Assembly: GCA_022843095.1 (NCBI GenBank)
Contig: JALHOH010000002.1
Location: 498,891-525,788 of the forward strand
DNA from: Candidatus Saccharimonadota bacterium
GTDB taxonomy: Bacteria > Patescibacteriota > Patescibacteriia > 2-12-FULL-60-25
DNA: 26,898 nucleotides
Reading direction: 5' to 3'
The notes below the pieces were generated by a model. That model was given only the letters and a program-made list of their open reading frames with translations. It did not search any database and had not been told where the DNA came from. Numbering within the stretch: the first letter of the stretch is position 1; each line of letters begins with the position of its first letter. Positions 8,166 to 26,898 of the stretch are shown piece after piece. The position numbers and the translations under genes are program-made.

Positions 8166-8170
8166 ACCGA

Positions 8171-8887: not shown

Positions 8888-8888
8888 G

Positions 8889-9630: not shown

Positions 9631-9780
9631 TATGAGTACAAATTACTCTTTTGTGAGTAGGCAGGTTTTTGAAACGAACTCGACCACAGATGTTTCGCGC
9701 ACCGGATAGAGACGACGTTTTAGAGACGTGTCGATTCACTAGTTATTGTGACTAGTTTTCGATACGGGGAGGTACAGCGC

Positions 9781-10059: not shown

Positions 10060-10082
10060 TCTCCGGCCGCGCCGTTCCCCAA

Positions 10083-10106
10083 GCCTCTCAAGATGAGAGG
10101 TTTTTT
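10083..10106 (+). terminator. Rho-independent terminator
   Basis: cctctc-aagat-gagagg is followed by tttttt. It sits between the convergent 92-aa ORF and the 579-aa gene. Confidence 0.7.
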
Positions 10107-10121
10107 GTTTCGACGCCGAGT

Positions 10122-11861: not shown

Positions 11862-14800
11862 CGCGACCTCCGAACGTCACTCGCCTGTAGTTTGAGTACT
11901 TCTCCGGACTTCATCTTTTCGGCCAGGTAGTCGATAGCGATACGCCAGTGCCCGAGTGGGTTATCCGGATCTCGCGGGATGTCCTTCACTACTCCAGAAA
12001 AGAAATCCCACGAACCAACCAACACCAACATCCGCTCGGCGCGAGAAAACAAGACGTTCATTCGTGTGGCATCTCGCAAGAAACCCAACGAGCGCCCGAC
12101 GTCACTTCCGTGGCGATTTCGAACTAGCGAAACCACCACCACGTCCGCTTGATCGCCTTGAAACGAATCCACTGTACGCACCAATTGGTTCGCCCGCTCT
12201 TTGTGGTTGCCGCGCTGCGCTCCTCGGTCTTCGATCGGCACGAACCACGCAGGCAGATTCCCCAGCGACGCAAACTTCTTGGTGAGCAAGTGCACTTGGC
12301 GTCGATACGGAGACAAGACTACGAGTCGAAGTGGTTTCGGAGGAGGAGTTGTAGGCGTGAGCGCGAATACGAAGTCGGAAAGCAGCTTCGCTTCTGGTTC
12401 CGATTCGTGCTCCGTCTCCTCTTCTCGAGAACGAGCCGCGGGGACATCGAGCCACACGATAGGGCAGCCCGATACTCCCAGCGGCGTCGAAAACGGGTGA
12501 ACAACGCGTGCGAGCGGAACTCCATCCTGAACGGTCATACTTTCGATCGGTTCGCGGTAGTACGCACTGGCGATCAGACCCGCGATTGCGGGGTGCATTC
12601 GATGCTGTTGCCACAGCATCATCGCCATCGCGTCGTCGCTCGCCTCGTCGCTACTTGCTTCATGTTCCCCGCTGGAGTTGCGGCATCGTTTGAACAACTC
12701 AGCAAACGTTGGCAACCACTCGCGCCAGAGACTGCGGCGATCGTCTCTCGCGCTTTCGTCGTCGAGGTCTCTCCACGTGCGAACCAGATCTCGATCAAGC
12801 AATCCCCCCGCGCCCGGCGCAAGTCTGTCGAGTTCATCCATCGCATCATCGATTCGGTCCAGCGCCTTTACAAAGTGGTCGAATCGGTAGGGCGGCAGCT
12901 GATTCTGATCCCCAACCAACAGCCAGCGGTGCCCTGCCTGGAGCGGGAGTACCAAGTCAAAGCCGTGCGCCTTTCCTGCTTCTTCGATGATCGACCAGTC
13001 GAAGGTCTGATGTCGCTTGGTCACGAAGTCGGCGAGATCGCGTGCGGTGGTCGTTCCGAATGTGACGCTGGCGGCATGTCGAAACAGCTCGATCATGTCG
13101 CGGGCACCGCTCGCGTCGTCACTTGTCGAGATTCCAGCAATGCCGTCCTCGAGCACCTTCAGCCACGCTCGTTCAAGTGCGGATTTGTCGTCTCGCTGCT
13201 CGACGATCGAAAGCACGCGACGCAACTCCCGCTCCGTTACTCGTTTGGGAGTGTCAGGATCGCCTCCATCTCCGTCCGGCCGATCCAGGCGGATGAGGTA
13301 CGGTCGTCGATCTTCTGGGATTGTGCTCAACATTTCGCGAACACGGTCACGGAGAACATCGACGGCGGCGTGGGCCTGCGCCGAGACGAGTACCTGCGCA
13401 ACAGGATCGTCTTCGAAGATTTGGGCGAGCAAATTCGCAACAAGAGTCGTCTTGCCTGTGCCGGGCGGGCCCTGTAGCGCAAACACAGGTCGCGTCCGCC
13501 AGATCCGCCGCAATGCCTGCTGTTTCGCCTTGTCGAGCTTTGCCGCTTCTCGCTGCAGCGGCAAGTCGGTTTCCGCAGAGTCCATGCGAAAAAAGTCGGG
13601 CGAGAGCAGAGATCGCATCAAGTAGCCATGATGACGAAGACGTTCGATTGCGTCTTTTCTGCGATGCAGAAGGCTGTACTGAAGAAAATAGTCTTTTGCG
13701 CGTAAGCAACCCTTGCTCGGTGCCGCCTGAGGTTGCTGCTGCCTGCGCAGGTGCACGATGTCGCCATCTATCCCGTCGACGGTCCAGTATTCGTATTCGT
13801 TGATGCGCCCCTGGACCGACAGTGCGCGGTCCTCCCCGAGGAACACGAGATCGCCGTTCACACTGTCAGCTGCCAGTTGCCGCAAATGCCCCGTCATGCC
13901 ATCTTTGGGGCGAACAAAGTCAAACACAGACGCGCTTGGCGGGATCTCACGAATTGAACGATATTCGACACCTCCTTCAGCGCGGTGCGAAACAGTTTCG
14001 TAGTCAAATATTTCAGATGCGCGAAACATCACCTCAATCTGATTTGTCAGTCGAAAGAACTCATGAAGCCGTTCGAATCGATCCCGATCGACGGCTCCGG
14101 GATCGAGAACAGGCAAGAGCGGTTTCCACGGGAGCGACTTTCGCCGAATCGCATCGGCGTCTCTCTTTACACTAGAGAGCAGGTGTACGCTGATCTTGGT
14201 ATTGCTCAGAACGACAGGCGATACTCCGACGGGATTGTAGGCGTTCTGCGCCGGCCTGCCGCAATACGCAATCGCCCAGTCTCCGGCGGGATCATTCGAG
14301 CGATCGCGGTATTCGGTGAGGTGGTACATGAGTCTTCGGCCAACTAGACCGACGCTCATTCGAGCTGGCTCCAGGCGCCCAAGAACACGCGCATCCAGCA
14401 AATCCTGTGCAATAAACTCGCGCTGTCGTTCTATGTCGTTCGCCGGAATCTTCGGCTCTTCATCGATGATTGCCGCCGTGAGGTCGCTGCCTGGACCAAG
14501 GTTGACCGCAAGTGCGAGTTGGGCATCTTTCGGCGCGATGGTTGTTCGCTGAAGGTGCGAAAGGATCTGGCCGATTCGCTGGTCGATCTCGTCCGCGCGC
14601 GACAGACGAGTGGACTCATCCCTTGCGATCAGGTCTGAAATTAGTTCAATTTCGTGCGGAATGAGCTTGGGCTTCCCTTTTAGTGTATCCCGGAAGTCGT
14701 CGAGATTTCCCTCGATTCCTCCAACGAATACCCAGGCGATGAGCGCCCCGAAGTCGAGCCAGTCCTGCGCAAAGGAAGCCGGTGTGTCGCGACGTGCCTG

Positions 14801-15364
14801 ACTTGCTCCTCGAGCAGCACCAAGACGCACGGTCCATTCGAACCCACCGAGGCGCATCGACAGCGGCCCATCAGCGGCGTTGAGAAACACGCTGCGGGCC
14901 GTCAGCGCTCGGTGGATCATCTGCTGTTCATGCAAGCGACCAAGCCCGCGGCTGAGGTTTCGTACGCCTTGCCAAACCCCCACTCGTGCCGAAGCGTCGT
15001 GCAGCCCGCGTAGCCAGTCGGTTCTACCTCGCTGCTTGAGCAGATCGTGCAGCGGCGTGACTCCTTCAACCGCGAGCGCCATCACGAATCGCTGGGCAGG
15101 TTGGTCGATCCCCGCGGCACGCAGCGTGACAAGCTCGCGTTCGATTCCAGGTAGGCTCGCTAGACGAAAGAGGTGTCGAATCTCGACGTCCCACAGCGCA
15201 CGCTCGATATCAGTGGGTCGGCCTCTTCGAAACTCCCATGCCTTGATGAGATGTGGCGCCGAGTATCGGTTTTCGCCCTCCCAAATGTCAGCGCCCTCGA
15301 TGGATGGGAGTTGACTAACGAGCGTGAATCGCCCGTCCAGAAGTTGCTGCCCCTGCACTAGCAT
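11858..15364 (-). CDS. Large fusion protein: N-terminal Ser/Thr-kinase-like domain + C-terminal SF1 Upf1/DNA2-type helicase (AAA_11/AAA_12, COG1112-like); Mokosh MkoA-like
   Basis: 1168 aa. Kinase-like motifs are HLIKAW (K41), WDVEIRHL, IHRALTARSVFL and RLGGFEW. Helicase motifs are FALQGPPGTGKTT (Walker A), WSIIEEAGKA, LLVGDQNQLPP, VDSFQGDQADVVVVSLVRN and GFLRDATRMNVLFSRAERMLVLVG. Confidence 0.75.
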   Translation of the reverse strand: MLVQGQQLLDGRFTLVSQLPSIEGADIWEGENRYSAPHLIKAWEFRRGRPTDIERALWDVEIRHLFRLASLPGIERELVTLRAAGIDQPAQRFVMALAVEGVTPLHDLLKQRGRTDWLRGLHDASARVGVWQGVRNLSRGLGRLHEQQMIHRALTARSVFLNAADGPLSMRLGGFEWTVRLGAARGASQARRDTPASFAQDWLDFGALIAWVFVGGIEGNLDDFRDTLKGKPKLIPHEIELISDLIARDESTRLSRADEIDQRIGQILSHLQRTTIAPKDAQLALAVNLGPGSDLTAAIIDEEPKIPANDIERQREFIAQDLLDARVLGRLEPARMSVGLVGRRLMYHLTEYRDRSNDPAGDWAIAYCGRPAQNAYNPVGVSPVVLSNTKISVHLLSSVKRDADAIRRKSLPWKPLLPVLDPGAVDRDRFERLHEFFRLTNQIEVMFRASEIFDYETVSHRAEGGVEYRSIREIPPSASVFDFVRPKDGMTGHLRQLAADSVNGDLVFLGEDRALSVQGRINEYEYWTVDGIDGDIVHLRRQQQPQAAPSKGCLRAKDYFLQYSLLHRRKDAIERLRHHGYLMRSLLSPDFFRMDSAETDLPLQREAAKLDKAKQQALRRIWRTRPVFALQGPPGTGKTTLVANLLAQIFEDDPVAQVLVSAQAHAAVDVLRDRVREMLSTIPEDRRPYLIRLDRPDGDGGDPDTPKRVTERELRRVLSIVEQRDDKSALERAWLKVLEDGIAGISTSDDASGARDMIELFRHAASVTFGTTTARDLADFVTKRHQTFDWSIIEEAGKAHGFDLVLPLQAGHRWLLVGDQNQLPPYRFDHFVKALDRIDDAMDELDRLAPGAGGLLDRDLVRTWRDLDDESARDDRRSLWREWLPTFAELFKRCRNSSGEHEASSDEASDDAMAMMLWQQHRMHPAIAGLIASAYYREPIESMTVQDGVPLARVVHPFSTPLGVSGCPIVWLDVPAARSREEETEHESEPEAKLLSDFVFALTPTTPPPKPLRLVVLSPYRRQVHLLTKKFASLGNLPAWFVPIEDRGAQRGNHKERANQLVRTVDSFQGDQADVVVVSLVRNRHGSDVGRSLGFLRDATRMNVLFSRAERMLVLVGSWDFFSGVVKDIPRDPDNPLGHWRIAIDYLAEKMKSGEVLKLQASDVRRSR

Positions 15365-15468
15365 GACCGGTCACCTCTTGAGCAAAGAGAACAGTATGCA
15401 CGCCCCGGTCCTCCCAACGCTGGCCCGTCAACGAGCTGGAGTTTGGAGTAACGCGGTGGTCACCATTC

Positions 15469-15496
15469 GACGACACCCCATCTACGCCGTGTCGTC
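15469..15496. repeat. 8-bp inverted repeat upstream of the kinase-helicase gene
   Basis: gacgacac (15469-15476) and gtgtcgtc (15489-15496) with a 12-nt spacer, about 105-130 nt upstream of the ATG at 15364. It may be an operator or a hairpin. Confidence 0.25.
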
Positions 15497-15721
15497 AATC
15501 CGAAATCTGCGGAAAAATGGCGAACGGGGATGCCGTCGTACATTGCGCCCAGTTCGGGAGGACTCGCCGAGTCTCTTCGGCGTGCTGTTTGGTATATTGC
15601 AAGCGGACAGCCGCGACCGACGTATTCGCGTGAAGCGACTTAGGCGCGTAGCGGTTTGAATCGATCCCGGCGATTGGTGGGCGCGATTCCAGCGGCAGAC
15701 GACACGGGCTTGCCGCGAGCG

Positions 15722-15997
15722 CTACAAGTTCGTCGCGATACCCGAGGCTTGGATCGCGCGGACGAGCTCGCCGACCTGCGCGGCGCTGAGCGAGGGCGGT
15801 TCCACCTCCTGCGAGGCAAGGATGCCGTCGAGGAGCGGCTCGAGGTCGACGCCCGCGCCGCGGAACACGGCTTCGAGGCGCTCAAAGAGCTCTCGGCTGC
15901 GGGGCCCGAACGTATCTGCGCCTCCCTGTCGCCGCACGAGTGCGAGTTGCGCAAGCGAGGCAAGCACAACCTCCTGACTCTTGTTCAACGCTGTCAT
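15722..15997 (-). CDS. Hypothetical protein (91 aa), high-GC block
   Basis: ORF with strong GC3 bias in this frame (MTALNKSQEVVLASLAQLALVRRQ...). I recognise no motif. Confidence 0.5.
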   Translation of the reverse strand: MTALNKSQEVVLASLAQLALVRRQGGADTFGPRSRELFERLEAVFRGAGVDLEPLLDGILASQEVEPPSLSAAQVGELVRAIQASGIATNL

Positions 15998-16138
15998 ATT
16001 CTGACACCAGTGAACCGCCTGCGCGCACAGCCGTCAAGGCGGACGGAAGCGCGAATTCCCGGTTCTTTCAGCGGCGAAGTTACGCTCGCAGCGAACCACG
16101 CGGCGGTCACGCAGCGCGATCCTCGCGAACCTCAGTCC

Positions 16139-17536
16139 TCACACGCACGTCCCCCGGCAGCAGGACTGCCCCACCCCGCACGCGTTCCCGCAGCGACCGC
16201 AGTGCTGGTTCGAGTTGAACGGGCAGACGGTTGCGCCGCCGCAAATCGTGGTCCCGCCCGAGCAGCTCGGAGACGGCGTACACGCGCCTGCCGCGCAGCC
16301 TTCGCCGCAGCCGCAGCGCCGCCCGCAGCCGCCGCAGTTCATTGGGTCGTCCGAAACGCTGATGCACGTCCCACCGCAAAGCTCTGTGCCCGCAGGGCAC
16401 GCGCAACGCCCGCTCACGCAGCTCACGCCGCTCGGGCACACCGCTCCGCAGCGCCCGCAGTTGAACGGGTTGGTCTGCGGGTTCACGCAGCCAGGGCCAG
16501 GGCAGTAGATCTCGCCGGCCGTCATGCAGTCGGAGCACATGCCCGCAACGCAGTGCTGCCCGGCGCCGCAGGCGTTTCCGCAGCGCCCGCAGTTACGGGT
16601 GTCGTTCTGCGTATTGACGCAGATCGGACTCATCGCCGTCCCACACAGCGTGGGGCGATCCGCTGGACAACGGCACATCCCCGCTTCGCAGACGCCGTCC
16701 CGGCCGAACATGCGCGTGCAGTTTGTCGTGCAGTTCCCGCAGAAGAACGGGTTCGTCATGAAGTCCACGTTGCACGCAGTGACGCCCGTGATGCGGAGAT
16801 CCCCGGACTGGCTGCTGCCCAGGTACTCGATCGTGGTGTCGCAGCGCGCCCCGCTTCCTGCTGCGCAACGGCAAGCTCCCGCGACGCAGTCTGCGCCGTT
16901 CGGCACGTTGATCGAGCTCCGATAGCCGAGGAAGTCGTAGCAGAGCACCGCGCGATCACAGCCGAGCCCGCAGCCACCGTTGCCCGTCTCGGGGAGACAC
17001 GAGGAGCCACACGTCTGCACGCCGTCGTCGACGCGGCCGTCGCAGTTGTCGTCGCGCACATTGCAGCGTTCGGACGCTGCCGGGTGTACGAGCGGATCAG
17101 CGTCGTCGCAGTCGGAGCCCCCGCAAACGAGCGGCGGATAGCCGTCCATGTCCCCGTCGAGCGGCTCGGAGCGACACGTTCGAGACGCCGCGTCACAGCG
17201 CTCCATTCGCGTGCAAGGATCCATGTCGGCGCAGTCGCTATCGCCTCCGCACGCGCGCCCCATCACACAACCGCGCCGTGGGTCACAATACGCGCCGGCG
17301 GTGCAGCGTGCCGCGACCACAGGGTGGACGCAGCGGCCAAGATCGCAGCGATCGACCGTGCAATCGATGCCATCGTCGCACTCCGCCGCAGAGGAGCAGC
17401 CGACGGCGCTGCCATCCACGACCGCGCCATCCATCACCGCGATGGCACCGTCTCGGCCGCCTCCATCGGGTCCAGGAGGAGGCGGCGACGTACAGCCGAA
17501 GGCGAGCAACACAACGAGCAGAGCGAAGCGCGACAC
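16139..17536 (-). CDS. Secreted cysteine-rich repeat lipoprotein (MopE-like metal-binding motif + repeated NCGxCGxxC modules)
   Basis: It has a signal plus lipobox-like MSRFALLVVLLAFGC, then DGYPPLVCGGSDCDDADPLVHPAASERCNVRDDNCDGRVDD. At least five modules follow, such as DTRNCGRCGNACGAGQHCVAGMC, NPFNCGRCGAVCPSGVSCVSGRC, DPMNCGGCGRRCGCGEGCAAGAC and NQHCGRCGNACGVGQSCCRGTC. This style is common in Myxococcota-like genomes. Confidence 0.7.
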   Translation of the reverse strand: MSRFALLVVLLAFGCTSPPPPGPDGGGRDGAIAVMDGAVVDGSAVGCSSAAECDDGIDCTVDRCDLGRCVHPVVAARCTAGAYCDPRRGCVMGRACGGDSDCADMDPCTRMERCDAASRTCRSEPLDGDMDGYPPLVCGGSDCDDADPLVHPAASERCNVRDDNCDGRVDDGVQTCGSSCLPETGNGGCGLGCDRAVLCYDFLGYRSSINVPNGADCVAGACRCAAGSGARCDTTIEYLGSSQSGDLRITGVTACNVDFMTNPFFCGNCTTNCTRMFGRDGVCEAGMCRCPADRPTLCGTAMSPICVNTQNDTRNCGRCGNACGAGQHCVAGMCSDCMTAGEIYCPGPGCVNPQTNPFNCGRCGAVCPSGVSCVSGRCACPAGTELCGGTCISVSDDPMNCGGCGRRCGCGEGCAAGACTPSPSCSGGTTICGGATVCPFNSNQHCGRCGNACGVGQSCCRGTCV

Positions 17537-17579
17537 GGAGGGACTCCTGCGGTTGAGGGGCTGGGGCCTCCTCGCTCAC

Positions 17580-18680
17580 CTACGCGCAGCTCGAAGCGGT
17601 GCAACGCGCGGCGATCGCGGGACACGCAGACCTCGCCGAACGCGACGTCTCCGTGGGGAAAACCAGCCCGAATGGACCGCTCGACGTTGCGCCCAAGTTC
17701 CCTTCGACGCAAGGCCGTTCGGGCCGGAAAGTGACTGCCTGTTCGCGCGTCGGTGGGACAGGGGCTTCGGCGGATGACGCGCGCAGCTCCGGTGGAATTG
17801 CGGCGGCAAGCGTCGCGATCGCGCGCCTTCGATGCGTGTCCACGAGGTGCAGGTACTGCATGGTGGTCGTGACGGAGGCGTGTCTGAGCGCGCCCGCGAC
17901 AACCGCGACATCGGCCCCGGCGGTCAGCATGTGCGTCGCGGCTGCGTGACGGAAGCTGTGCGGGCTCACCTTGCGCGTGATGCCTGCCTTCCCGCGCAGG
18001 ACTGCGATCACGTGCTGCACGGCACGGACAGAGAGCCGCGTACCGGTCTGCAGCCCGACGAAGAGTGCGGTCTCCCCTGCTTTGGCGATCGCGCCGCGCG
18101 CCTCGACCCACGCCGTGAGCAACGCGAGGGCATCGGGGTTCAGCGCGACGCTGTGTCGGGTCGCGCCCTTCCCGTGCACGTCGAGGAGCGACGCGCTCAC
18201 CGGCTCGAGCTGCGAGACCGTGAGCCCGGCCACCTCGTGCACACGCAGCGCGGTCTGCGACAACACCGCGAGGAGCGCGATGCTGCGGCTCCGCGCGACG
18301 GGGTCCGGCTCTTGGGCTGCCGCGGAGAACATCGCGCGGATCTCTCCGAGCGTTGGGACTGCGGGCTCGTGTGCAGGCTCACGCAAGAGCCGGATGCCTT
18401 TCGTGGGGTCGCGAGAGAGGAGCCCGTGCTCTGCGGCGAAGCGGAAGAACACGCGCAATGCGGCAAGGTCGAGGTTCCTTGCGCGCGGGGCTCGCGCCGC
18501 GCCGGTCTGCTTCGGGCGCACAAGGAAGGCTTCGACGTCTGCGAGGCTTGGCTCTGTTTTCACAGGCAGATCGCGGAACGCGAAGAACGTCTCCACGATC
18601 CGTGCGTACGTGGCTTGGGTTCGTGGGGCGTGGTTTCTGGCGGAGAGAAAGCGGCGAAAGTCGTCGAGGTGTTCACGCAT
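17580..18680 (-). CDS. Tyrosine recombinase / phage-type integrase (XerC/D-like)
   Basis: The N-terminal SAM-like domain reads FLSARNHAPRTQATYARIVETFFAF. Catalytic signatures are ALRVHEVAGL (R), HSFRHAAATHM (HxxR), LRHASVTTT and MQYLH (Y). About 70 aa of non-canonical C-terminal tail follow. Confidence 0.8.
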   Translation of the reverse strand: MREHLDDFRRFLSARNHAPRTQATYARIVETFFAFRDLPVKTEPSLADVEAFLVRPKQTGAARAPRARNLDLAALRVFFRFAAEHGLLSRDPTKGIRLLREPAHEPAVPTLGEIRAMFSAAAQEPDPVARSRSIALLAVLSQTALRVHEVAGLTVSQLEPVSASLLDVHGKGATRHSVALNPDALALLTAWVEARGAIAKAGETALFVGLQTGTRLSVRAVQHVIAVLRGKAGITRKVSPHSFRHAAATHMLTAGADVAVVAGALRHASVTTTMQYLHLVDTHRRRAIATLAAAIPPELRASSAEAPVPPTREQAVTFRPERPCVEGNLGATSSGPFGLVFPTETSRSARSACPAIAARCTASSCA

Positions 18681-18748
18681 ATGCGCGACGGTTCACCACG
18701 CAGGGTACCTGGCGGGCGAGGCTGTTGACGAGGGCGGCCGAAGCAACG

Positions 18749-18778
18749 CGCTTCGTCGAAGGGAACTTGGACGAAGCG
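18749..18778. repeat. 9-bp inverted repeat between the CBASS effector stop and the integrase start
   Basis: cgcttcgtc (18749-18757) and gacgaagcg (18770-18778) with a 12-nt loop. It could be a U-tract-less terminator or a protein-binding site. Confidence 0.3.
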
Positions 18779-18811
18779 GCGTGAGGCGGGCATCTCGGCG
18801 TGCGACCATCC

Positions 18812-19471
18812 TCATGCCCCATCCGCGTCGGTCGGAGTGGACGTCGTCGGAGCCGTCGCGCCCGTGCTCGCAGCTGGTGATGACGTTCTCGCCGCGACGC
18901 GCTTCGTGAGCGTCAGCGAACCGAACGTCTGGCGATCGCGGTCGTTGTAGTAGCGACCTCGAGCTGTTCCATCTGCCGCGAACGTAATCTTCGCCGTGCC
19001 CGCATGCGCGTGGAGGTCGGCCTTCGCCGCGGGATCTGGCTCGTTGCGGTATGCGTAGGTGAGCACGGCACCCTGCGTTGGATCGTCCGAGAGCCACGCC
19101 CCGATGCTCGACGAGCTCGATGTCGCGGTCTTCACGGTCACGAGGATGCGGGTCCACTCCTGCGCGATCGTGAGCGTCCCCTTGATGGGCTTCGCGTGCT
19201 GATCGTTCGACGAGAGAATCTCCAGCTCGTACGTGCCGCGAAGGTCCGGGATGCCGTGCAGCCATCGAAACGCATGCCAGCCCCACTTGTTGAAGAACCA
19301 CGCGAGGCCCGCGAGGAATCCGAAGGGCGCGGGCGTGTCGATCCACCACGGCGCATGCACCACCTCCAAGATCTTGCCCAAACCGAACGCGAGCGCGAGC
19401 GCGGGAACGAAGAGCCACCGCTGCGCCTCTTCCTGCTTGTCGTGGGCATACGGGTGAATGCCCGCACTCAT
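18812..19471 (-). CDS. cap15: CBASS effector, 2TM + beta-strand-rich domain (S-2TMbeta / Cap15-like)
   Basis: ORF 18812..19504 trimmed to MSAGIHPY (ATGA overlap with the cyclase stop at 19468-19471). Two TM helices (WLFVPALALAFGLGKILEVV, FGFLAGLAWFFNKWGW) are followed by a beta-rich segment (GTYELEILS..GTLTIAQEWTRILVTVKT..VLTYAYRNEP..GTAKITFAADGTARGRYYNDRDRQTFGSLTLTKR). Confidence 0.65.
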   Translation of the reverse strand: MSAGIHPYAHDKQEEAQRWLFVPALALAFGLGKILEVVHAPWWIDTPAPFGFLAGLAWFFNKWGWHAFRWLHGIPDLRGTYELEILSSNDQHAKPIKGTLTIAQEWTRILVTVKTATSSSSSIGAWLSDDPTQGAVLTYAYRNEPDPAAKADLHAHAGTAKITFAADGTARGRYYNDRDRQTFGSLTLTKRVAARTSSPAASTGATAPTTSTPTDADGA

Positions 19472-20349
19472 GACGGCGACTGCCCGTTGAACGCGCGGAT
19501 CCACGCCTCCCGCGCGAGCTGCTCGTTCGGCGCACGTCGGGCGTAGTCGGCGTGCACAAGCGCCTCACCGAGCCTCTGCTGAAAGGACTTGAATTGTGGG
19601 GCGTCCCACTCAGTGCTCGTGAAGATGCTGTCCTCTCCTCCAGGACGACGCACGGGGCGCGTGTCGTAGTTCCAGGCGACGATCTCGTGCCCGACGGACA
19701 CGAAGGCATCTGCACCGACGTTCGAGAAGCATCCGTCGGGCACCGCATGGAGCAGGCACTCGATGTAGAACGAGGGGGCGATCTTGCTGTCCGTCGTGAC
19801 GGCACGCCGCCATGCCTTGAAGAGACGCACCGTTTGCTTGAACGCGCCGTCCGTGCGGCGACTCTTCTCCGCTCCCGCTTCGTAGTGGCTGCGCGGCCAG
19901 TTGCGGCGTTCGCGCCTCTCGCGAAACGAGTAGATCGCGACAGGGTCGCTCTCGGGGCTCGTGACGTAGATCGCGGGAACGACGTCGATCGTGACGCCCG
20001 TGTTCAACTGGATGCACTTGTCTTTCCGCTGCCACTTCCCGGCATACCGGCTGTCCGCCTGAAGTTTGCGCTCGATGCGCGCGAAGATCTCGTCCCACGA
20101 GACGGTCGTACCGCCCGCCGCGACCCGACCGAACGTGCTGCTCACGACGCCGAAGGAGACTGCGACGAGATCAACATCGTTCATGTCCCAGAGCGACGTT
20201 TCGTTCTTGTAGCTGCCCTGGAGGAGCGTCGCGTACCCGTCGCCCAGCGCGGCTCGAACGTTTTGATGGAGGGACACGGCTCGCGCGACGGTGCTCTCCG
20301 CGGGCGGGCGGGCGTATCGAAGGACGAAGTCGTTCGGCAGGTTGGACAT
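19468..20349 (-). CDS. CD-NTase / SMODS-family nucleotidyltransferase (CBASS cyclase)
   Basis: LLQGSYKNETSLWDMNDVDLVAV carries the GS ... DxD motifs, VTIDVVPAIY the third acidic residue, and LFKAWRR and PSFYIECLL are present. This layout is typical of cGAS/DncV-like nucleotidyltransferases. Confidence 0.7.
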   Translation of the reverse strand: MSNLPNDFVLRYARPPAESTVARAVSLHQNVRAALGDGYATLLQGSYKNETSLWDMNDVDLVAVSFGVVSSTFGRVAAGGTTVSWDEIFARIERKLQADSRYAGKWQRKDKCIQLNTGVTIDVVPAIYVTSPESDPVAIYSFRERRERRNWPRSHYEAGAEKSRRTDGAFKQTVRLFKAWRRAVTTDSKIAPSFYIECLLHAVPDGCFSNVGADAFVSVGHEIVAWNYDTRPVRRPGGEDSIFTSTEWDAPQFKSFQQRLGEALVHADYARRAPNEQLAREAWIRAFNGQSPS

Positions 20350-20484
20350 GAGGGACAGTTCCTCGCGAACAGTGAGCGGGACGAACGCGACGAGAGCGAC
20401 GGCGGCCCCGTCGTGACCACCTGAACGCTAGCGCCATGCGAGCGTCAGGAGCAACGCGATCAGGCACAGAGACGACGCGAGGAC

Positions 20485-20964
20485 GTGCTTGCTGACGTGC
20501 GTGGTGGCGGAGCGACGAAGTACGCTCCGCATGTGGCAGAGAAGCTCGTGTATCACCGGCTCGATGCGCCTTCTCGAACGTCGCCGTTCGCGCGAGCGAT
20601 CGCGAAGATCGCCCGAGGCGGGAAGGTCGACGTCGTCGGCCCCTATCTCAGCGTCGAGCGGCTGAACGAGCTCGTGTCGCACACGACGTCGTGGCGGCTC
20701 GTGACGGACGCGCAGGAGTGGCTGCGCGCGGAGGGGCACGAGGCGCAGAGAGCGGCGGACTTCATCGAAGCACACCATAAGCGGGTGCGGGACTGTCGCG
20801 GGGTACACGCCAAGGTCGTGATCGGCACGGAAGAGGCGCTTGTTGGCTCGGCGAACCTAACGGCGATCGCCTGGCTCTCCCAACGAAGCTCATCGTCGAA
20901 ACCCTACAATGCCCATCGCGGTAGCGGTAGCGGTCAAGCTCGGATGCTGGCAAAGAATCGTTGA
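20485..20964 (+). CDS. Single-HKD phospholipase D-family (Nuc-like) nuclease
   Basis: FARAIAKIARGGKVDVVGPYLS is followed by GVHAKVVIGTEEALVGSANLT (HxK ... GSxN). Its size of about 159 aa is like dimeric Nuc-type enzymes. The start is uncertain (GTG at 20485 or 20533). The last ~28 codons lie in lower-GC sequence and the last 31 nt overlap a convergent ORF. Confidence 0.65.
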   Translation: MLADVRGGGATKYAPHVAEKLVYHRLDAPSRTSPFARAIAKIARGGKVDVVGPYLSVERLNELVSHTTSWRLVTDAQEWLRAEGHEAQRAADFIEAHHKRVRDCRGVHAKVVIGTEEALVGSANLTAIAWLSQRSSSSKPYNAHRGSGSGQARMLAKNR

Positions 20965-21389
20965 ACGGTCTGCTCGGTCAGCCTCGTCGAAGTAAATCCT
21001 TTGCCAACGAGGATGTTTCTCAGTCCGATCTGAACACTTCTCTCGGGAATCGAACGATCTCGTGCCCACTGGAGGTAGTCCGAGACAAGCTCGAAGTGCC
21101 TAATGCGCGTCGGATCAGCAAGAGACGATTTGCATGTCGGGCACCAGAACATCTTCTCTGTCGAGTACTCGTACGAAAAATATGTCGAAAATCGAGTAAC
21201 AGGACGCTTGCAGCGTCCTTCGCATTGAATCGTGAACGGTGCCGCGTCGAGTTCCTGCATCAGCTCTTGAAGTCGGCGGGCACGTTCGGTTAGGCGACTT
21301 CGTTGCGTTGATGCGAAAGCGGCTAGCGGCTCGCGAAACAACTGCAATTCAGGCGACGGCGGTTCGGTGACATTTCGGGGAGTGGCCAT
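20934..21389 (-). CDS. Hypothetical Zn-ribbon protein (151 aa)
   Basis: The ORF has plausible codon periodicity. QCEGRC (Cx3C) and WCPTC (Cx2C) are about 30 aa apart. I recognise no family. Confidence 0.5.
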   Translation of the reverse strand: MATPRNVTEPPSPELQLFREPLAAFASTQRSRLTERARRLQELMQELDAAPFTIQCEGRCKRPVTRFSTYFSYEYSTEKMFWCPTCKSSLADPTRIRHFELVSDYLQWARDRSIPERSVQIGLRNILVGKGFTSTRLTEQTVQRFFASIRA

Positions 21390-21502
21390 ACTTAATCCGT
21401 ATCGCCAACGGCTGGCTTGTCAACTGGCGCCACGCGGGAGACTGCGCAAGAGACAGATTCCCCGGGGTGAGTTCATGCGGTGATGACTCCTTGAAGTGAC
21501 TG

Positions 21503-21823
21503 ATGAAATGGGACGCAAGGGATCAACCAGCGGCGATTCCGGTAACTATCGACCGACATGCGCTCGACCGAATGCCGGAGCGGAGAGACTCGGTTGATAT
21601 GCCGTCCACATCCTGGCGCGTCCACATTCTCCGTCGCATGAAAACCGCACTGAAGTTCGTCCGCGGCGACGGTTTCAGTCCGGAGCTCCAGGCGCGAGGC
21701 TGTCGCACGATGGCATCGACCGAGCTGCTCGCCGCGATCATGGCGCTCCTTCTGGACGTCAGCGAGTGGCAGCGCCCGACGATCGCAAAGATGGTGGTTA
21801 CGGTAAGGCTTGCCGGAGTTTGA
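21503..21823 (+). CDS. Hypothetical protein (106 aa), weak DUF4258-like N-terminal pattern
   Basis: This frame has better GC3 and periodicity than the overlapping minus-strand ORFs. VTIDRHALDRMPERR resembles the HAxxRMxER motif of DUF4258-type small toxins, and the C-terminus reads IAKMVVTVRL. Recognition is weak. Confidence 0.35.
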   Translation: MKWDARDQPAAIPVTIDRHALDRMPERRDSVDMPSTSWRVHILRRMKTALKFVRGDGFSPELQARGCRTMASTELLAAIMALLLDVSEWQRPTIAKMVVTVRLAGV

Positions 21824-22127
21824 TGGGACACCGAAAAGTCGAAAGATCCGTGGCGAGGACGAGCCCGAGGTCGTTGTCGCGGAGGGCACCGTCCAGAACG
21901 GCTTGAAGGCGCGAGGTCCTAGGAGAGCGTTCCTCCGCATCGTACTGGGTCGCTCACCGAAATAGTGATATAACAAGGCGGTGTAGCGATGCCAGTCCGC
22001 GCAAAACATACCTCAACCTCTCCGACGAATTGCGCGATGTGTCGAGCCGTCGGTGGACGGTGCCCACACGCACAAAACCCATCGACCGGCAAGCGGCCGA
22101 AGGACCTGTCTCGACTGAGTCCCCAAC

Positions 22128-23714
22128 TCAGGACAGATTGGTAGAAACGATCGTTCGGAGCAGATCGTTCCAGGAGTTCGTTGCAAGCGAGAGTCTCTGG
22201 GTAGCCGACAACCAGAACCGCTTGCCTACGTCGCGCCGGTCTACTCGCTGGTCGAGTGAAGGCGACAGCGGCTTGCTGTACGCCGCCTCGATCTGTGTAT
22301 CGAGTGCCGAACGCGCATATCGTGCGTGCTCATGAAACGGAGACGTTGTTCCGAAATCTGCGGAAAGAAGCGCAAAAATGGTCTCTTTCACTTGGGGGAG
22401 CGAGGTGTTTCGAATCTTACTCTCCCCTACTTCCTTCATGGATGCGAGCACGAGTTTACAAGCAACCACCAGGTATTCGAGGGCAAGCGTAAAGTCGACG
22501 CCAGCAATTCCATTCGGGGGCAACGGCGAAGGCAATCGCGCTCCCGCGACGCGTAGCGCTTCGCTGCAGCCCAAGAACGGCACGCGATGGGACCACCGAT
22601 GATACGCGAGATCCTCTACAACCTGGGCGAAGTTCGCGGCTCCTTTGCCTTCCATAATTCGCTTGACCTGTTCCGCATCTTCAGGGTTGAGCGTGATGCC
22701 TCCGGGTTGAACCCTGTTCTGCAGCTTTCGACTGGCAAAGTGGCGAATGAGCGTACGAACCTCTTCGAGCGAAGCGTCTTTCGAGAACAGCGGGATGTCC
22801 ATTGCGACCCACTCCTGGAAAGAGGAGTTGAGCGAAGAGTTCGTCGGCCGAACCCCTATGCTCGATGAGTGCATGACTTTCAGGCCGGCGGATTGACCGA
22901 GCCAGTAGGACAAGGCCGGAAGTTCGAAGACGCTGGACTCGCCGTTGACCTTCATAGTGGACCCGATGTCGAGAATCTCGACCGTGAGGCCATGCTTGCC
23001 TTCGTCCTGCGGACTGGGTTCCGAGGAGCGATTGGTCGCACTACGTTGGTTGAATCGACTTTGCAATTCGTTGAGCGTCACCTCCTTGATACAATACTGG
23101 TCTGTGACCATCGCGCCGAGAAGTCGAGCCCACAGTCTCGCCTCGAATCCGCACAGGACGTACGGTTTCAACGATGGAACAGAATTCGTGTCGATCGCGC
23201 GGAGAACATCCTGCGCCGCGTGTGCCAACTGACTGAAAAACTGCGTTCTTGTGTCGTTCAGCAGCAGCAGTGGCTTCTCTCCCCTCACTCCTACCATCAG
23301 GTCAGCGGATTCAGGTCCGGAAAGGACCTGAATATCGCTCCACAGGCAGTAGTCATCATTTCTGGCATTCAAGGCGCTCACGAGTGCATTGATGTTTTGC
23401 ACCCTTGCCTCGAACCGCCGCTCAGAAGTCAGCACATTCGCGAAGCGCTCGATCTGGGAGTCGGTGAGCACGTCGCTCTCATCGATTGTGCCGGTGTTCA
23501 GGCCAGTCGCAGCCGCGACTTGGCGAAGGCGCTCGACGCTGATGTTGCATGCGTTAGCAAACATCGCCAACGTCGTTCCCCCCGTGGAAACGGGCGCGAT
23601 GCCACTCCCTGGAGTGACCTGCTCGTTGGACCTGTTGTCCTGAGTGATGGAGCGACCTGAAGCGGGAAAGTCGCTCGGCGCACGGGAAGCCCTTTCGGAC
23701 TTCGCGTGCGCCAT
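22128..23714 (-). CDS. Hypothetical protein (528 aa), no recognised domain
   Basis: A long uninterrupted ORF in the low-GC islet. The N-terminal ~50 aa are disorder-like, and an alternative start is M51 (23564). I found no P-loop or nuclease signature. Confidence 0.6.
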   Translation of the reverse strand: MAHAKSERASRAPSDFPASGRSITQDNRSNEQVTPGSGIAPVSTGGTTLAMFANACNISVERLRQVAAATGLNTGTIDESDVLTDSQIERFANVLTSERRFEARVQNINALVSALNARNDDYCLWSDIQVLSGPESADLMVGVRGEKPLLLLNDTRTQFFSQLAHAAQDVLRAIDTNSVPSLKPYVLCGFEARLWARLLGAMVTDQYCIKEVTLNELQSRFNQRSATNRSSEPSPQDEGKHGLTVEILDIGSTMKVNGESSVFELPALSYWLGQSAGLKVMHSSSIGVRPTNSSLNSSFQEWVAMDIPLFSKDASLEEVRTLIRHFASRKLQNRVQPGGITLNPEDAEQVKRIMEGKGAANFAQVVEDLAYHRWSHRVPFLGCSEALRVAGARLPSPLPPNGIAGVDFTLALEYLVVACKLVLASMKEVGESKIRNTSLPQVKETIFALLSADFGTTSPFHEHARYARSALDTQIEAAYSKPLSPSLDQRVDRRDVGKRFWLSATQRLSLATNSWNDLLRTIVSTNLS

Positions 23715-23729
23715 GGAAAATCACCAGTC

Positions 23730-23759
23730 TTGACAACAAGTTATGCGATATGGTATACA
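23730..23759 (+). promoter_or_regulatory. Sigma70-type promoter with extended -10, divergent from the 528-aa gene
   Basis: TTGACA (23730-23735), an 18-nt spacer ending in TGg, then TATACA (23754-23759). Confidence 0.45.
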
Positions 23760-23765
23760 ACCAAG

Positions 23766-24099
23766 TCGCCTGAAAGCGGCCCCCGAATTGCCGATGACAT
23801 GTGGTCGTCGGCGGCTCGGGTGCCGGTGGGGACAACTCGCCATGGATTGGTACTCCTTGTGCGGGTCGCTGTGATGCTTCCTTCATCACATATGCTCCGC
23901 CGGCACCCACCCTCCTCGTGAGCGAAGTCTCGACGATAGGGATGAGGGACGGACAGAACACCCCAGTAAAGTTCGTCCGGCCCAAGCCTCGTCAAGCCGC
24001 ACACGTACTTTTCCGCCTCCCCGGTAGCTCGCAGCGTTAGCTCTCTGCCGCCGCCATAAGCAAAATCGGCCAAGTTTCACCCGGAAACTTGGCTTTTTT
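23766..24099 (+). ncRNA. Candidate ~330-nt transcription unit (structured RNA or small-protein mRNA) bounded by a promoter and a terminator
   Basis: It lies between the promoter at 23730-23759 and the terminator at 24069-24099. A 14-bp long-range helix (23818-23831 with 23895-23908, two G-U pairs) encloses the hairpin gtgatg-cttcctt-catcac (23871-23889). Only weak ORFs without an SD are present. Confidence 0.3.
24069..24099 (+). terminator. Canonical rho-independent terminator
   Basis: gccaagtttc-acccg-gaaacttggc gives a 10-bp stem, followed by tttttt. An A-rich tract upstream gives it some bidirectional character. Confidence 0.8.
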
Positions 24100-24388
24100 G
24101 AATTTTCGAGCCCGGCCGCCGAGTGTCACCCACGAAGAGCGGAAAGGCGATCCGTTGCGACAGCCCGTCATGTTGCCGCAGCCGCACTGGGGCGGATCGA
24201 GCATCGAGCCCAAACATAGACCAGATTGTCAGCACTTCTTGGTGCAATTCGCTCCGCGGGGCCTTCGTCGCCTGCGAATTCTGCGAGAATGTTTGCTCTG
24301 GCTCGCTTGCTTCGACCGCTGGCCCGCGGAACGCACTCAAGGACCTCGCCGCGACGCGCAATCCCGTGCGCTGCGGCAGGAGGTCCCA

Positions 24389-25258
24389 GTGCTCGATTCC
24401 CCCACCCCCCAACCGCCCCTGCCTGTGCCGCTGCGCTCGCTCACAGCGGTCGCTTGCTCGCTCGCCCTGTTCGGCTGCTCCGACGCCGGCGCTCGCGCCC
24501 GCCGCCTCGCGCAGGAGGCCGCCGCGCAAAGCGGACTCGGCGACCGTGCCCCGCAGTCCGCGCGCGCCTTCGTGTTTCTCTGCGACACGAGCCCTCGCGC
24601 GGGGTGCTCCGAGCCCGTGCTCGACCAGCTCATCCCCGCACTCGCCCGCACCGCGTCCCGAGCACCCGGCTCAACTCTCACAGTCGGCGCGCTCGGCTCG
24701 ACGGTGGGTGAGACCCGAGAGGTCGCCTCCCTCTCCGCGCCCCCGCTCCCACCGCGACCCCGCGATCGTGAGGCCGCGCTTGCACGCTTCGTCGACACGA
24801 CGAGGCAGACGCTCTGCCCGCCCATGCGGCCCGTCCTCGCGGGCGTGCGGCCGCGCCAAAGCCCCATCGTCGAGTCCATCGCGAAGGTCGCCCTCGCGCG
24901 CAATCCGAACCTGACGCTCTCGCTCGTGGTGGTCTCGGACGCCCGAGAAGACTCGCGCTTCGGCGCGTTCGCCTGCGGGCCACTGCCGTCGCCCACGGCG
25001 TGGACTGCGCTCCTGCAGCGCCGCGGAGTCCTGCCTCCAGGCTCTCTCTCCGGCGTATCAGTGCACTTCGTCCTCGCTCATGCCGGGCCACAGGGCACGC
25101 GCCGCTGTGCGCCGTCGATTGGGCGCGAGCGCGCGATCCGCACCCTTTGGGCCCACGCCCTCACGCGCGCTGGAGCCGCAGCTGTGACCTTCGCGAGCTC
25201 GCCTGCCGAGCTCGTCGCTTCCTTTTCAACGCCCACCTCGACAGGAGGCTCTCGATGA
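24389..25258 (+). CDS. Putative lipoprotein, weak vWA-like pattern
   Basis: An in-frame GTG within ORF 24089..25258 is preceded by AGGAGG 5 nt upstream. The signal and lipobox-like sequence is LRSLTAVACSLALFGCSD. AFVFLCDTSPR and LSLVVVSDARED recall vWA beta1/MIDAS and beta4. GC3 bias is high in this frame. Confidence 0.5.
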   Translation: MLDSPTPQPPLPVPLRSLTAVACSLALFGCSDAGARARRLAQEAAAQSGLGDRAPQSARAFVFLCDTSPRAGCSEPVLDQLIPALARTASRAPGSTLTVGALGSTVGETREVASLSAPPLPPRPRDREAALARFVDTTRQTLCPPMRPVLAGVRPRQSPIVESIAKVALARNPNLTLSLVVVSDAREDSRFGAFACGPLPSPTAWTALLQRRGVLPPGSLSGVSVHFVLAHAGPQGTRRCAPSIGRERAIRTLWAHALTRAGAAAVTFASSPAELVASFSTPTSTGGSR

Positions 25259-26133
25259 TTCGTCCGCTGATCCACTGGCTGAATTCGCTGCTCTTCAACC
25301 GAGCGGCAGAGACCGACGCTGACGCTGGTGTCGATGGCGTTGATCGACAGCTCAAACGCGCCTTCGGCAAGGACCCAAAGTCGCTCGCACAAGGCTCGCT
25401 CACCCATACCGAGGCCGTTCAGGCGCTCACGGACCGCGCGAACATCCGCGCGCTCGAGCAACAGCTGCGAGAACTGCTTGCTGCACGAGCGACGATCGGC
25501 AGTCCGACGCCCCTCACCATCCAGCTCGCGTGCCTCACGGCCTGCGAGTTCTTCGGCGTGCTCAATCTGCTGAAGAACACCGGGTTGGGCGCGGAGGAAC
25601 GCGTGCTGCCAGCGCTTGGGCTCACGTTCTCGCTCATGTTCCTGACGAAGCACGTCTTCTCGGCGAGAGCCACGCGAACGACCACGCCGCCGGCAATCGC
25701 CTCGGCGGAGCCGTCGAATACGGCGCTCTGGAAAGAAGTTCCCGCGCTCGCGAAGGGCGCCCTGGTCCCGCTCGTGTACACCGTGCTCGTGGCCGCGATC
25801 GCGTTTGCGCGCATCGGCGCGCACGGCGAGAGCGAAGACATCTCCGACACGCAGACCTTCGCCGACGCGATCCTCACGATCGCGATCACGGCTGGCCCCG
25901 CGTGGCTCGCGGCGCACGTAGCCAAGAAGCGCGGCCCCGCAGTCGAGCTCGCCCGTCACCTCAGAGAGACGAAGAGCGCGCTTCGCGCGGCGAGACGGAG
26001 AGAAGAACGCGCCCGCAAGTACCTCGCGAATCTCGACGAGGCCTCCGCGAAACACACCGATGCGACGACGCGGGCCGCAGCGGCGTACTCGCTCGCGCAC
26101 GACCGCGCCCAGGGAGGTGGCGAGACCAACTGA
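25255..26133 (+). CDS. Membrane protein with ~4 TM helices and a C-terminal charged coiled-coil tail
   Basis: The ATG at 25255 overlaps the upstream stop (ATGA) and is preceded by AGGAGG. TM segments are LTIQLACLTACEFFGVLNLL, VLPALGLTFSLMFLT, LVPLVYTVLVAAIAFARIG and FADAILTIAITAGPAWLAAHV. The tail reads RETKSALRAARRREERARKYLANLDEA. Confidence 0.55.
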   Translation: MIRPLIHWLNSLLFNRAAETDADAGVDGVDRQLKRAFGKDPKSLAQGSLTHTEAVQALTDRANIRALEQQLRELLAARATIGSPTPLTIQLACLTACEFFGVLNLLKNTGLGAEERVLPALGLTFSLMFLTKHVFSARATRTTTPPAIASAEPSNTALWKEVPALAKGALVPLVYTVLVAAIAFARIGAHGESEDISDTQTFADAILTIAITAGPAWLAAHVAKKRGPAVELARHLRETKSALRAARRREERARKYLANLDEASAKHTDATTRAAAAYSLAHDRAQGGGETN

Positions 26134-26224
26134 TCGATCTTCGCGCGCCGTTCGTCGCCCTTCGCTGCGCGATCGACACGACGAGCGGTGCCCGTTCTCA
26201 ACGCACTCACACGGAGCTGTTTCC

Positions 26225-26898
26225 ATGCACACCACGAAGAAGTCCGACGGAGCCTCAACCAAGAACGCCCGGCCGAAGAAGTCCCTGAACATCCTCGTCG
26301 GAGGCGCGAACCGCGGAACCCGGCAGAATTTGCCCGGATACGAGCGATTCAACGCGAAGTCCTCTGGCACCGAGCTCGTATTGCGCTGCGTCGATCCCGA
26401 GCCCGGCCGAGCCGCAGAATGCGCGGAGCTCGCCGCAAAGAGCGGCGTTGCGATCACGCCCGATGAAGGGCGCATCGAGGACGCGATGCGCTCCGATCTC
26501 TCGCCCACCGTTCTGCAGGTCGACAACGCCGAGACCGTCGCGAACGCGATGGCTGTCGCGCGAGCGCTCCCGCGGCCCGTCACGGGCATGCTGCTCGTGG
26601 GACTGCCCGGCCGATTGCTCGGCGTGCGCTTCACGCTCACGCTCGGCAACCCGACCGCTTTCCAAGAGGTCGAGACGCTCATGCACACGCTCCGGGAGGT
26701 GACGGCGCCAAGCGGATCGTCGAAGGTGATCGGGCTCGAAGCTCCGATCGGGCAGCAGCTCGCCGAGCCGCTGTTTCGGGAGTGGTTCGCGCGCCACACG
26801 GAGGACGTGCTCGGCAAATTCGCCGCGGGAACACCGGTGAATTGTGCGCCGATCGAAGGCACCTTCGACGGAGGCCGTACCCTTCCCGTGCTCATCGT
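26225..26898 (+). CDS. Hypothetical protein, 5' part only (runs off the window end; not in the ORF track because no stop is reached)
   Basis: My own translation from the ATG at 26225 gives MHTTKKSDGASTKNARPKKSLNILVGGANRGTRQNLPGYERF...GTFDGGRTLPVLI, with no stop to 26898 and strong GC3 bias in this frame. Confidence 0.5.
   Translation, partial: MHTTKKSDGASTKNARPKKSLNILVGGANRGTRQNLPGYERFNAKSSGTELVLRCVDPEPGRAAECAELAAKSGVAITPDEGRIEDAMRSDLSPTVLQVDNAETVANAMAVARALPRPVTGMLLVGLPGRLLGVRFTLTLGNPTAFQEVETLMHTLREVTAPSGSSKVIGLEAPIGQQLAEPLFREWFARHTEDVLGKFAAGTPVNCAPIEGTFDGGRTLPVLI

Follow-up and report, generated by a model that had tools for sequence, protein, structure and literature searches.

Do the uncharacterised genes lying between 20934 and 24099 (the islet) of a 26,898-nt stretch of DNA from a Candidatus Saccharimonadota bacterium constitute a novel system, and which of them belong to it? 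The whole stretch is referred to here as the window, and all coordinates count along it. A preliminary description had proposed that four elements of the islet, namely a 151-aa protein with a zinc-ribbon motif, a 106-aa open reading frame (ORF), a 528-aa protein and a small unit bounded by a promoter and a terminator, are candidates for a novel system in a defence island. The ORFs, the motifs, the drop in guanine-plus-cytosine (GC) content and the terminator on which this proposal was based are all present, and a promoter-like site can be recognised in the sequence. The genes are indeed unassignable and do lie in a defence island, but a single joint system of all four is not supported, as joint occurrence in relatives was found for just two of them, the small unit and the 528-aa gene (three of three loci). 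What the islet does contain is a cassette of one RNA and one protein gene, rarely found, in which two RNA structures are conserved; as to defence, it would be a candidate only. The parts of the cassette are as follows.

22072-22100, minus strand: terminator-like hairpin with a U-rich tail, found by a terminator scan 28 nt past the stop codon of the 528-aa gene.
22128-23714, minus strand: gene of the 528-aa orphan protein, the conserved core of the finding; probable start ATG at 23714, alternative start at Met51 (23564).
23631-23740, minus strand: conserved structure at the mRNA 5' end (-27 to +83), identified by fold z, covariation and a hold-out model.
23730-23759, plus strand: promoter-like site of the divergent RNA, composed of TTGACA (23730-23735), 18 nt and TATACA (23754-23759).
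23766-24099, plus strand: candidate structured non-coding RNA of ~330 nt (ends inferred), identified by conservation, covariation and strand tests.
24068-24099, plus strand: intrinsic terminator ending the RNA and marking the right edge of the islet, an 11-pair stem (24068-24094) followed by TTTTTT.

The cassette is known from three loci: the window and two contigs, L004 (1083 bp) and L003 (1943 bp). An exhaustive HMMER search of 1.84 billion representatives of ~15 billion proteins yielded only two real relatives of the 528-aa protein: P0003, a 109-aa fragment encoded in L004 with 60% identity to residues 1-108, and P0005, encoded in L003, with 24% identity (E 5.6e-9). A match to P0004, a 4003-aa eukaryote-like repeat protein, was rejected as inflated by repeats (11 short stretches), and the matches of a metagenome motif scan in L005 (GC 0.37) and L006 were discarded as chance, with no protein similarity. 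Word-indexed searches with the single sequence and with a three-sequence profile returned the window's own protein only. There was no match in Pfam (also at E <= 10 and with sub-domains), NCBIfam, PHROGs or PADLOC; tblastn against 72,556 plasmids and 50,697 phages brought up no relative, and scanning viral contigs and a representative-genome collection with the protein alignment found none either. A PDB sequence-profile search, as well as Foldseek with the AlphaFold2 (AF2) model, gave noise only. The earlier statement that the proteins of the islet fit no family was borne out in Pfam, NCBIfam, PHROGs, PADLOC, the PDB, phages and plasmids.

The 528-aa ORF has a coding-like composition (GC at codon positions 1/2/3 of 0.58/0.46/0.67) and is the best of the six frames by codon score. 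All three loci retain a ATGGCGCA start, a GGTGAT Shine-Dalgarno sequence 5 nt upstream of it and a frame that stays open for 49-50 codons, in support of a start at 23714. A 10-bp GC-rich hairpin with a T-rich tail is present in L003 at the position equivalent to the post-stop hairpin of the window, and on account of this pair of terminator-like hairpins the gene looks monocistronic. A comparison of the window with L004 divides the 5' part of the gene in two. Codons 51-108 display a synonymous divergence (dS) of 1.05 and a ratio of nonsynonymous to synonymous divergence (dN/dS) of 0.33, as in a normal gene under purifying selection; in codons 1-50 dS is only 0.08 and dN/dS is 2.5, the synonymous sites being nearly frozen. 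This difference in dS is accounted for by an RNA structure in the mRNA leader, which overlaps the beginning of the ORF.

A sliding fold scan of the islet gave its strongest and most contiguous signals at this leader and at the core of the divergent RNA. Covariation in both structures was measured on an alignment of the window, L004 and L003 and compared with two controls, slid pairing partners and 500 shuffles; for the hold-out tests, covariance models were built with L003 left out, and L003 was then searched for. The leader consists of two hairpins directly after the AUG, a helix that involves the Shine-Dalgarno sequence and an outer helix. It folds with a z of -4.6 in the window, -4.0 in L004 and -3.8 in L003, and the shape is the same in all three. 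In the alignment, 90% of the cells are paired, compared to 38-43% with slid partners; seven pairs are altered on both sides, against 0-2 when slid, a number reached by 2 of the 500 shuffles. A manual count of pair types gave ~12 G.U cells on the mRNA strand versus 2 on the other strand, and the hold-out model recovered L003:241-360 with 38.2 bits (E 7.7e-8). The minimum-energy fold of each of the three loci pairs the GGUGAU of the Shine-Dalgarno sequence (23720-23725) with a downstream AUCAC or CAUCG, located at codons ~22-24 of the ORF. With the Shine-Dalgarno sequence so paired, translation of the 528-aa protein is probably off by default.

The small unit on the opposite strand, which the preliminary description had listed, was found to be real and is conserved in relatives. 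L004 aligns to window positions 24105-23390 with 75% identity over 727 nt, a span that covers the whole RNA unit. Between 23771 and 24067, substitutions are spread evenly over the three codon phases (32/30/31) and the gap runs measure 5, 1 and 3 nt, which indicates that the unit (23766-24099) is non-coding. The three-way alignment defines a core at 23813-23915, in which a 14-bp closing helix surrounds two hairpins. Here 92% of the cells are paired, compared to 40-54% with slid partners, and 13 pairs are altered on both sides, against 0-2 when slid; none of the 500 shuffles reached this number. The consensus fold is more stable on the plus strand (-69.8 kcal/mol) than on the minus strand (-58.5 kcal/mol). 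Single-sequence folds give one shape, and each of the three loci folds better on the strand opposite the protein gene (in L003, -63.8 vs. -47.7 kcal/mol). A hold-out model built from the window and L004 recovered L003:46-192 on the predicted strand, with 27.1 bits and an E of 5.7e-4 in 211 kb, the best decoy scoring 13.8 bits. Rfam 15 scans, both of the whole window and focused, found no family for this RNA, and no second copy of it was found in the window; 15 matches to the core pattern in a viral scan all scored below 15 bits with the covariance model and were discarded as chance. L004 keeps the terminator stem and the plus-strand T-run, with a different loop; the L003 contig stops short of the terminator position. 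The RNA and the 528-aa gene stand together in all three known loci. The data clearly show that both RNA structures, on opposite strands, are conserved with compensatory changes.

The two transcription units meet in a very small space. The promoter-like site, from which transcription of the divergent RNA would start, overlaps the mRNA leader of the 528-aa gene, and its -35-like hexamer lies inside the outer helix of the leader. It had not been flagged by a consensus scan because the second hexamer lacks the final T. The site is kept in L004, and its TTGACA is invariant in all three loci; on either strand, the palindrome GGTATACC yields -10-like hexamers. The zone from 23715 to 23770 is 93% identical in the window and L004, and it is the sharing of this control region of ~60 bp by the two 5' regions that suggests to us that expression of the RNA and of the protein is coupled.

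One possible explanation of this arrangement, and the one that we favour, if tentatively and with somewhat less than even confidence, is that the ~2-kb cassette (~22072-24100) comprises a tightly repressed effector gene and a partner RNA that restrains it; of this, the anatomy is well supported and the function is proposed. The 5' fold of the monocistronic mRNA would hide the Shine-Dalgarno sequence and silence translation, and the ~330-nt RNA would be transcribed the other way, from the promoter-like site inside the leader to the strong terminator. It could restrain a harmful effector by competing at the promoter or, alternatively, by binding to the protein, and the effector would be released upon a stress such as phage infection. 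By analogy, a silenced gene whose near-invariant control region is shared with a divergent structured RNA would fit the pattern of restrained, potentially harmful genes. A more specific version, in which the cassette is an undescribed RNA-protein module of the defence islands of an unsampled lineage, with an RNA that checks a silenced effector (possibly a very divergent HEPN RNase) in an abortive-infection or toxin-antitoxin (TA)-like switch, is in our estimate unlikely. The HEPN element in this version comes from the most conserved block of the protein, EEVRTL(I/V)RH, which holds its sole R-x4-H motif (R320...H325), in a predicted helix of a low-confidence model. HEPN RNases carry an R-x4-6-H motif where a helix begins in an all-helical domain. 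The motif hints at a HEPN-like RNase, a lead only, since by our estimate one such motif is roughly the chance expectation in 528 residues. No PDB sequence or Foldseek match to a HEPN fold was obtained, in a fold comparison that is itself weak at the confidence of the model.

Several observations weigh against the favoured explanation. Duplex energies between the RNA and positions -15 to +150 of the mRNA were no better than those of shuffled sequences (z 0.3-1.0) in any of the three loci. Searching Pfam at E <= 10 with residues 121-373 revealed no HEPN or other nuclease profile, and the AF2 model has a predicted local distance difference test score (pLDDT) of 38 (58-80 in residues ~46-100), too poor for fold comparison. 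Met51 is the start in a 478-aa gene call made on the source contig (P0001), and if translation does start there, which is possible, the paired GGUGAU is not a ribosome-binding site. The gene copy of L004 (L004:730-1059), the closest homologue, is interrupted in frame by a stop that follows codon 109 and lies 24 nt short of the end of the contig, and its similarity to the window ceases there; either the copy is a pseudogene whose neighbouring RNA is still conserved, or the contig end has produced an artefact. There are just three loci, and with the window and L004 closely related and L003 distant, the covariation leans mainly on L003; at this number of loci no formal significance can be computed for it. 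Finally, the representative genomes closest to the host in a conserved ABC ATPase share only 52-56% identity and are scattered mainly over Gammaproteobacteria. In a host lineage sampled so poorly, being an orphan counts for little by itself.

The window is a real defence island, as had been described, carrying Mokosh and CBASS (cyclic-oligonucleotide-based anti-phage signalling system) genes and a gene of the phospholipase D (PLD) type.

10122-15364, minus strand: type I Mokosh system, with MkoA (1168 aa, PADLOC E 2.6e-210) followed by MkoB (579 aa, E 3.4e-42).
18812-20349, minus strand: two-gene CBASS, consisting of a CD-NTase (E 6.8e-26) and a Cap15 effector with two transmembrane segments (2TM); the genes overlap by 37 nt.
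20485-20964, plus strand: PLD-like (HKD) gene, a 3'-truncated remnant broken at 20861, just after GSANLT.
20861/20862, no strand: breakpoint of a rearrangement within the PLD-like gene; the actual left border of the islet.

The Cap15 gene (18812-19504) was identified by both PADLOC (1.8e-70) and Pfam (8.9e-31), and with this 2TM protein as the CBASS effector, the PLD-like gene is not. With its CD-NTase and Cap15 effector the CBASS is complete. A place in it as accessories is not supported for the islet proteins: they match no PADLOC model, those of Cap and effector families included, and share no transcription unit with the CBASS genes, from which they are separated by the truncated PLD-like gene and its breakpoint. 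An identical CD-NTase was seen in at least six metagenome contigs, including an activated-carbon metagenome (PRJNA301005) and JGI sample 3300002461 (prefix AADWTP), sources that hint at a water-treatment biofilm habitat. Directly downstream of the Cap15 gene, a 1.1-kb segment with a tyrosine recombinase gene (17682-18781) runs the opposite way in four independent metagenome contigs (L102-L105). The inverted repeats on its two sides share a perfect 17-bp core, CCAAGTTCCCTTCGACG (17693-17709 and 18754-18770), and the segment looks invertible and possibly phase-variable; because the 3' end of the recombinase ORF crosses an inverted repeat, the C-terminus of the protein varies with orientation (366 vs. 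333 aa).

The islet had been described as an area of low GC that begins at 20934 and ends at a strong terminator. Its GC (0.575) is indeed lower than that of its immediate neighbours, 0.669 on the left (15501-20933) and 0.682 on the right (24100-26898), but not than that of the window at large: the first 9 kb (1-9000; tRNA-Thr, YibE/F, ABC transporter and GST) have 0.558 and the region of the Mokosh genes (9001-15500) has 0.582, both matching the islet. The compositional outliers of the window are the high-GC blocks, the left of which includes the tyrosine recombinase gene, and not the islet. The right border stands at the terminator as described; by composition and structure the left edge lies at 20861/20862 rather than at 20934. 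In two metagenome contigs, L103 and L104, the CBASS genes and the sequence onward to 20861 match the window with 98.25% identity, after which the sequences part. Past this breakpoint they stay PLD-like at a GC of 0.656, reading GSANLT|NAGLGRRTEMAVF...; in the window, islet DNA follows instead and the PLD-like ORF ends at 159 aa. The intact form in these contigs (L103:3-1028 and L104) is at least 342 aa long, with DrmC and ZacB as its best PADLOC models; against Pfam PLDc_2 (cutoff 27 bits) the intact copy scores 38.1 bits and that of the window 14.9 bits. A tandem run of GCGGTA (2.8 copies, 17 nt) occupies 20918-20934, where the truncated PLD-like ORF meets and overlaps the convergent 151-aa ORF at its 3' end. 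The right junction is old: L004 (~75% identical) has in common with the window the terminator, a short block (24152-24172) and, from the lipoprotein gene that follows, its Shine-Dalgarno sequence, its start and an N-terminal motif. The idea of a foreign low-GC insert is not supported, given a GC like that of most of the window, the lack of flanking direct or inverted repeats in a repeat search and the right junction shared with L004; a 24-nt repeat (21640-21663 and 23956-23979) was dismissed as no better than chance, given an 11-nt seed and 7.9 kb of sequence.

Farther to the left, a 692-aa plus-strand ORF at 15656-17734 has an atypical GC phase, and the phase of GC at third codon positions shifts along this stretch, which suggests frameshifts or overlapping calls. 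A 465-aa minus-strand ORF at 16139-17536 contains Cys-rich MopE-type and STIG1-like repeats (Pfam 1.3e-9 and 2e-7). At 1496-4556, on the minus strand, a protein of the RNase H-like/PD-(D/E)XK type (Cas4-like, DUF2779) adjoins a 531-aa protein whose resemblance to spermine synthase is weak (Pfam E 0.0011, below cutoff; PADLOC mad2, 1.8e-5). Both lie upstream of a tRNA-Thr(TGT) at 5388-5464 on the minus strand, a possible integration hotspot.

To the right of the cassette lies an operon with which the RNA could be connected.

24389-26898, plus strand: high-GC operon of three uncharacterised genes, encoding a lipoprotein, a 292-aa protein and a third protein whose gene is cut by the window end.

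The lipoprotein gene starts with a GTG at 24389 and encodes 289 aa with the lipobox LALFGC, and the 292-aa gene overlaps it by ATGA. None of the operon genes matched anything in Pfam, NCBIfam or PADLOC, and a 605-aa minus-strand ORF over the operon DNA was rejected as spurious by its GC phase. An explanation that we regard as rather unlikely, although it fares best among the alternatives, is that the RNA is a leader or small RNA of this operon and the 528-aa protein its divergent regulator, with an ordinary role in the envelope or in physiology rather than in defence. Promoter, conserved structure, terminator and genes would then follow each other on one strand, in the classic layout of a leader, and the order of 528-aa gene, RNA and lipoprotein gene is common to L004, together with an AGGAGG Shine-Dalgarno sequence and a PQPPLP N-terminal motif. 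The protein has a small helical module at its N-terminus, and residues ~46-100, the one stretch modelled with confidence, bear a weak likeness to a small DNA-binding domain (8csh_A; template modelling score 0.63 over 50 columns, probability 0.47). With riboswitch and attenuator leaders the RNA indeed has in common a conserved structured domain that is followed by an intrinsic terminator upstream of same-strand genes. In contrast to them, the terminator stands ~290 nt before the start codon, no Rfam riboswitch or other family was recognised, and no antiterminator was found: a search for pairings of at least 6 nt with the 5' arm of the terminator gave none in the window and two 6-nt matches in L004. 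Unlike a riboswitch leader, moreover, the RNA co-varies in occurrence with a gene on the opposite strand. The operon also differs from the cassette in GC (~0.70 vs. 0.57), and its linkage to the cassette is beyond the view of L003. Between the terminator and the lipoprotein gene, a block of 19-21 nt (GTTGCGACAGCCCGTCATG, 24152-24172) is kept in L004 amid unconserved surroundings; it may be an operator or promoter element, suggestive of a control region of the operon's own. Exact-protein look-ups with the 528-aa protein and the lipoprotein returned identical contigs only, with no alternative right-hand context.

A second alternative, which we consider doubtful, is that the region is plain chromosomal DNA with little conservation, in which the RNA and the protein are lineage-specific orphans and unrelated neighbours, the small ORFs being spurious or decaying. 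With the closest genomes as far removed as 52-56% on the ABC ATPase, many genes would look orphan, and the remaining ORFs of the islet are in keeping with such a picture.

20934-21389, minus strand: 151-aa orphan ORF with a C4 zinc-ribbon-like motif, Cx3C...Cx2C (Cys 56, 60, 83 and 86).
21473-22009, strand unassigned: middle region with competing ORFs, one of 178 aa (minus strand, 21473-22009) and one of 106 aa (plus strand, 21503-21823).

The 151-aa ORF is the best of six frames, if weakly (-0.048 bits per codon), and was left uncalled in L102 by the JGI caller. A single-sequence search among 5.8 billion clusters returned only itself, and its AF2 model (pLDDT 48.5) gave noise in Foldseek. In the middle region the 106-aa ORF has the better codon score (+0.087 vs. 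-0.084 bits per codon) and the 178-aa ORF the better ribosome-binding site, a GGAGAGG Shine-Dalgarno sequence 7 nt before the ATG. The callers differ as well, Logan having called the 178-aa ORF and JGI the 106-aa ORF; each may be the antisense shadow of the other, as their frame relation often leaves shadow ORFs open. None of the three ORFs matched Pfam, NCBIfam, PHROGs or PADLOC, the 106- and 178-aa ORFs had no relative in the libraries tried, and the fold scan gave no RNA-structure signal in the region. The likeness of the 106-aa ORF to DUF4258 (PF14076, which we take to be the accession of that family) was not upheld: HALDRMPER is present from residue 19, yet no DUF4258 profile matched even at E <= 10, and the Pfam searches at E <= 0.1 and E <= 10 gave noise matches to MIAC and HEAT_DAAF5 only. 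As the contigs of both relatives end before the 151-aa and the 106/178-aa ORFs, no link of these to the cassette can be drawn, and they are unsupported orphan neighbours rather than demonstrated parts of it. Their weak codon scores, the disagreement of the callers and the broken PLD-like gene would all suit a region of orphans and decay. The RNA and the 528-aa gene, in contrast, have been kept together across a divergence down to 24% protein identity, their two structures are maintained by compensatory changes, and codons 51-108 show the signs of purifying selection.

Least probable, and indeed hard to credit, is that the cassette is a maintenance or replication control of a mobile element, in which a structured counter-transcript limits the synthesis of a DNA-binding protein of the initiator or partition type. 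Such control typically pairs a gene repressed in translation with a structured RNA that diverges from it (CopA and repA of R1 and the ctRNA of repABC are examples from plasmid copy control), the cassette adjoins an integrase-bearing block, its left junction is a rearrangement breakpoint and the protein has a weak fold resemblance to a plasmid Par DNA-binding domain; against this stand the lack of any match of the protein to Rep, Par, relaxase or other mobile-element families, the lack of relatives on plasmids, phages or viral contigs and of iterons or tandem repeats, and the lack of RNA-mRNA complementarity beyond chance.

Should the favoured explanation of a silenced effector and its restraining RNA be true, the cassette would add two new families, one of proteins and one of RNAs, that are absent from Pfam, PADLOC and Rfam. 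Mining by guilt by association of proteins only would have yielded four unrelated hypothetical proteins and missed the conserved RNA partner. The reach of the finding is limited by its rarity, three loci in all of the public data searched.

Among known systems, some can be set aside by the searches. No reverse transcriptase domain, as in a retron or a defence reverse transcriptase, was found in the islet ORFs with Pfam or PADLOC, and the 528-aa protein matched no endoribonuclease of the ToxN/AbiQ family, the toxins of type III TA (ToxIN, AbiQ, CptIN, TenpIN), in PADLOC, Pfam, PHROGs or NCBIfam. In type III TA and AbiF systems the protein gene is preceded, on its own strand, by the RNA, which is co-transcribed by read-through and consists of repeated motifs (the abiF motif RF03085, ToxI repeats); in type III TA a terminator stands between the two. 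RF03085 was absent from the whole-window and focused Rfam scans, no Abi_2 profile matched, and TRF (minimum score 30) found in 20500-24500 only the 17-nt GCGGTA run, and hence no tandem-repeat antitoxin of type III; the repeat search gave no array either. The RNA described here, unlike that of type III TA, is placed on the strand opposite the protein gene by folding energy, G.U asymmetry, the position of the T-run and the strand of the hold-out match. The likeness to type III TA (ToxIN, AbiQ) and to AbiF/RCd22 lies in a structured RNA with its own terminator that is genetically tied to a protein. In AbiF/RCd22 the RNA binds and neutralises a toxic HEPN Abi protein (PMC12373285); in the cassette, binding of this kind would be a plausible way of acting, and harm by the protein is proposed only.

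The divergent type I TA loci (tisB/istR-1, zorO/orzO and shoB/ohsC) have in common with the cassette a hidden ribosome-binding site, a divergent RNA and a compact shared control region. In type I TA loci the 5' fold of the toxin mRNA hides the ribosome-binding site, and a divergent small RNA adjoins. The toxins are small hydrophobic peptides, typically under ~60 aa, and the antitoxins base-pair with the toxin mRNA. The protein in the window, by contrast, has 528 aa (478 from Met51), and its RNA has ~330 nt, a three-helix core and complementarity to the mRNA at chance level. Taken together, these comparisons suggest that the layout of the cassette resembles that of divergent type I TA loci and its logic that of type III TA or AbiF/RCd22, and that it is a member of none of these groups; if the favoured explanation holds, it would combine features of type I TA with a partner RNA of the type III/AbiF kind, but around a large protein.

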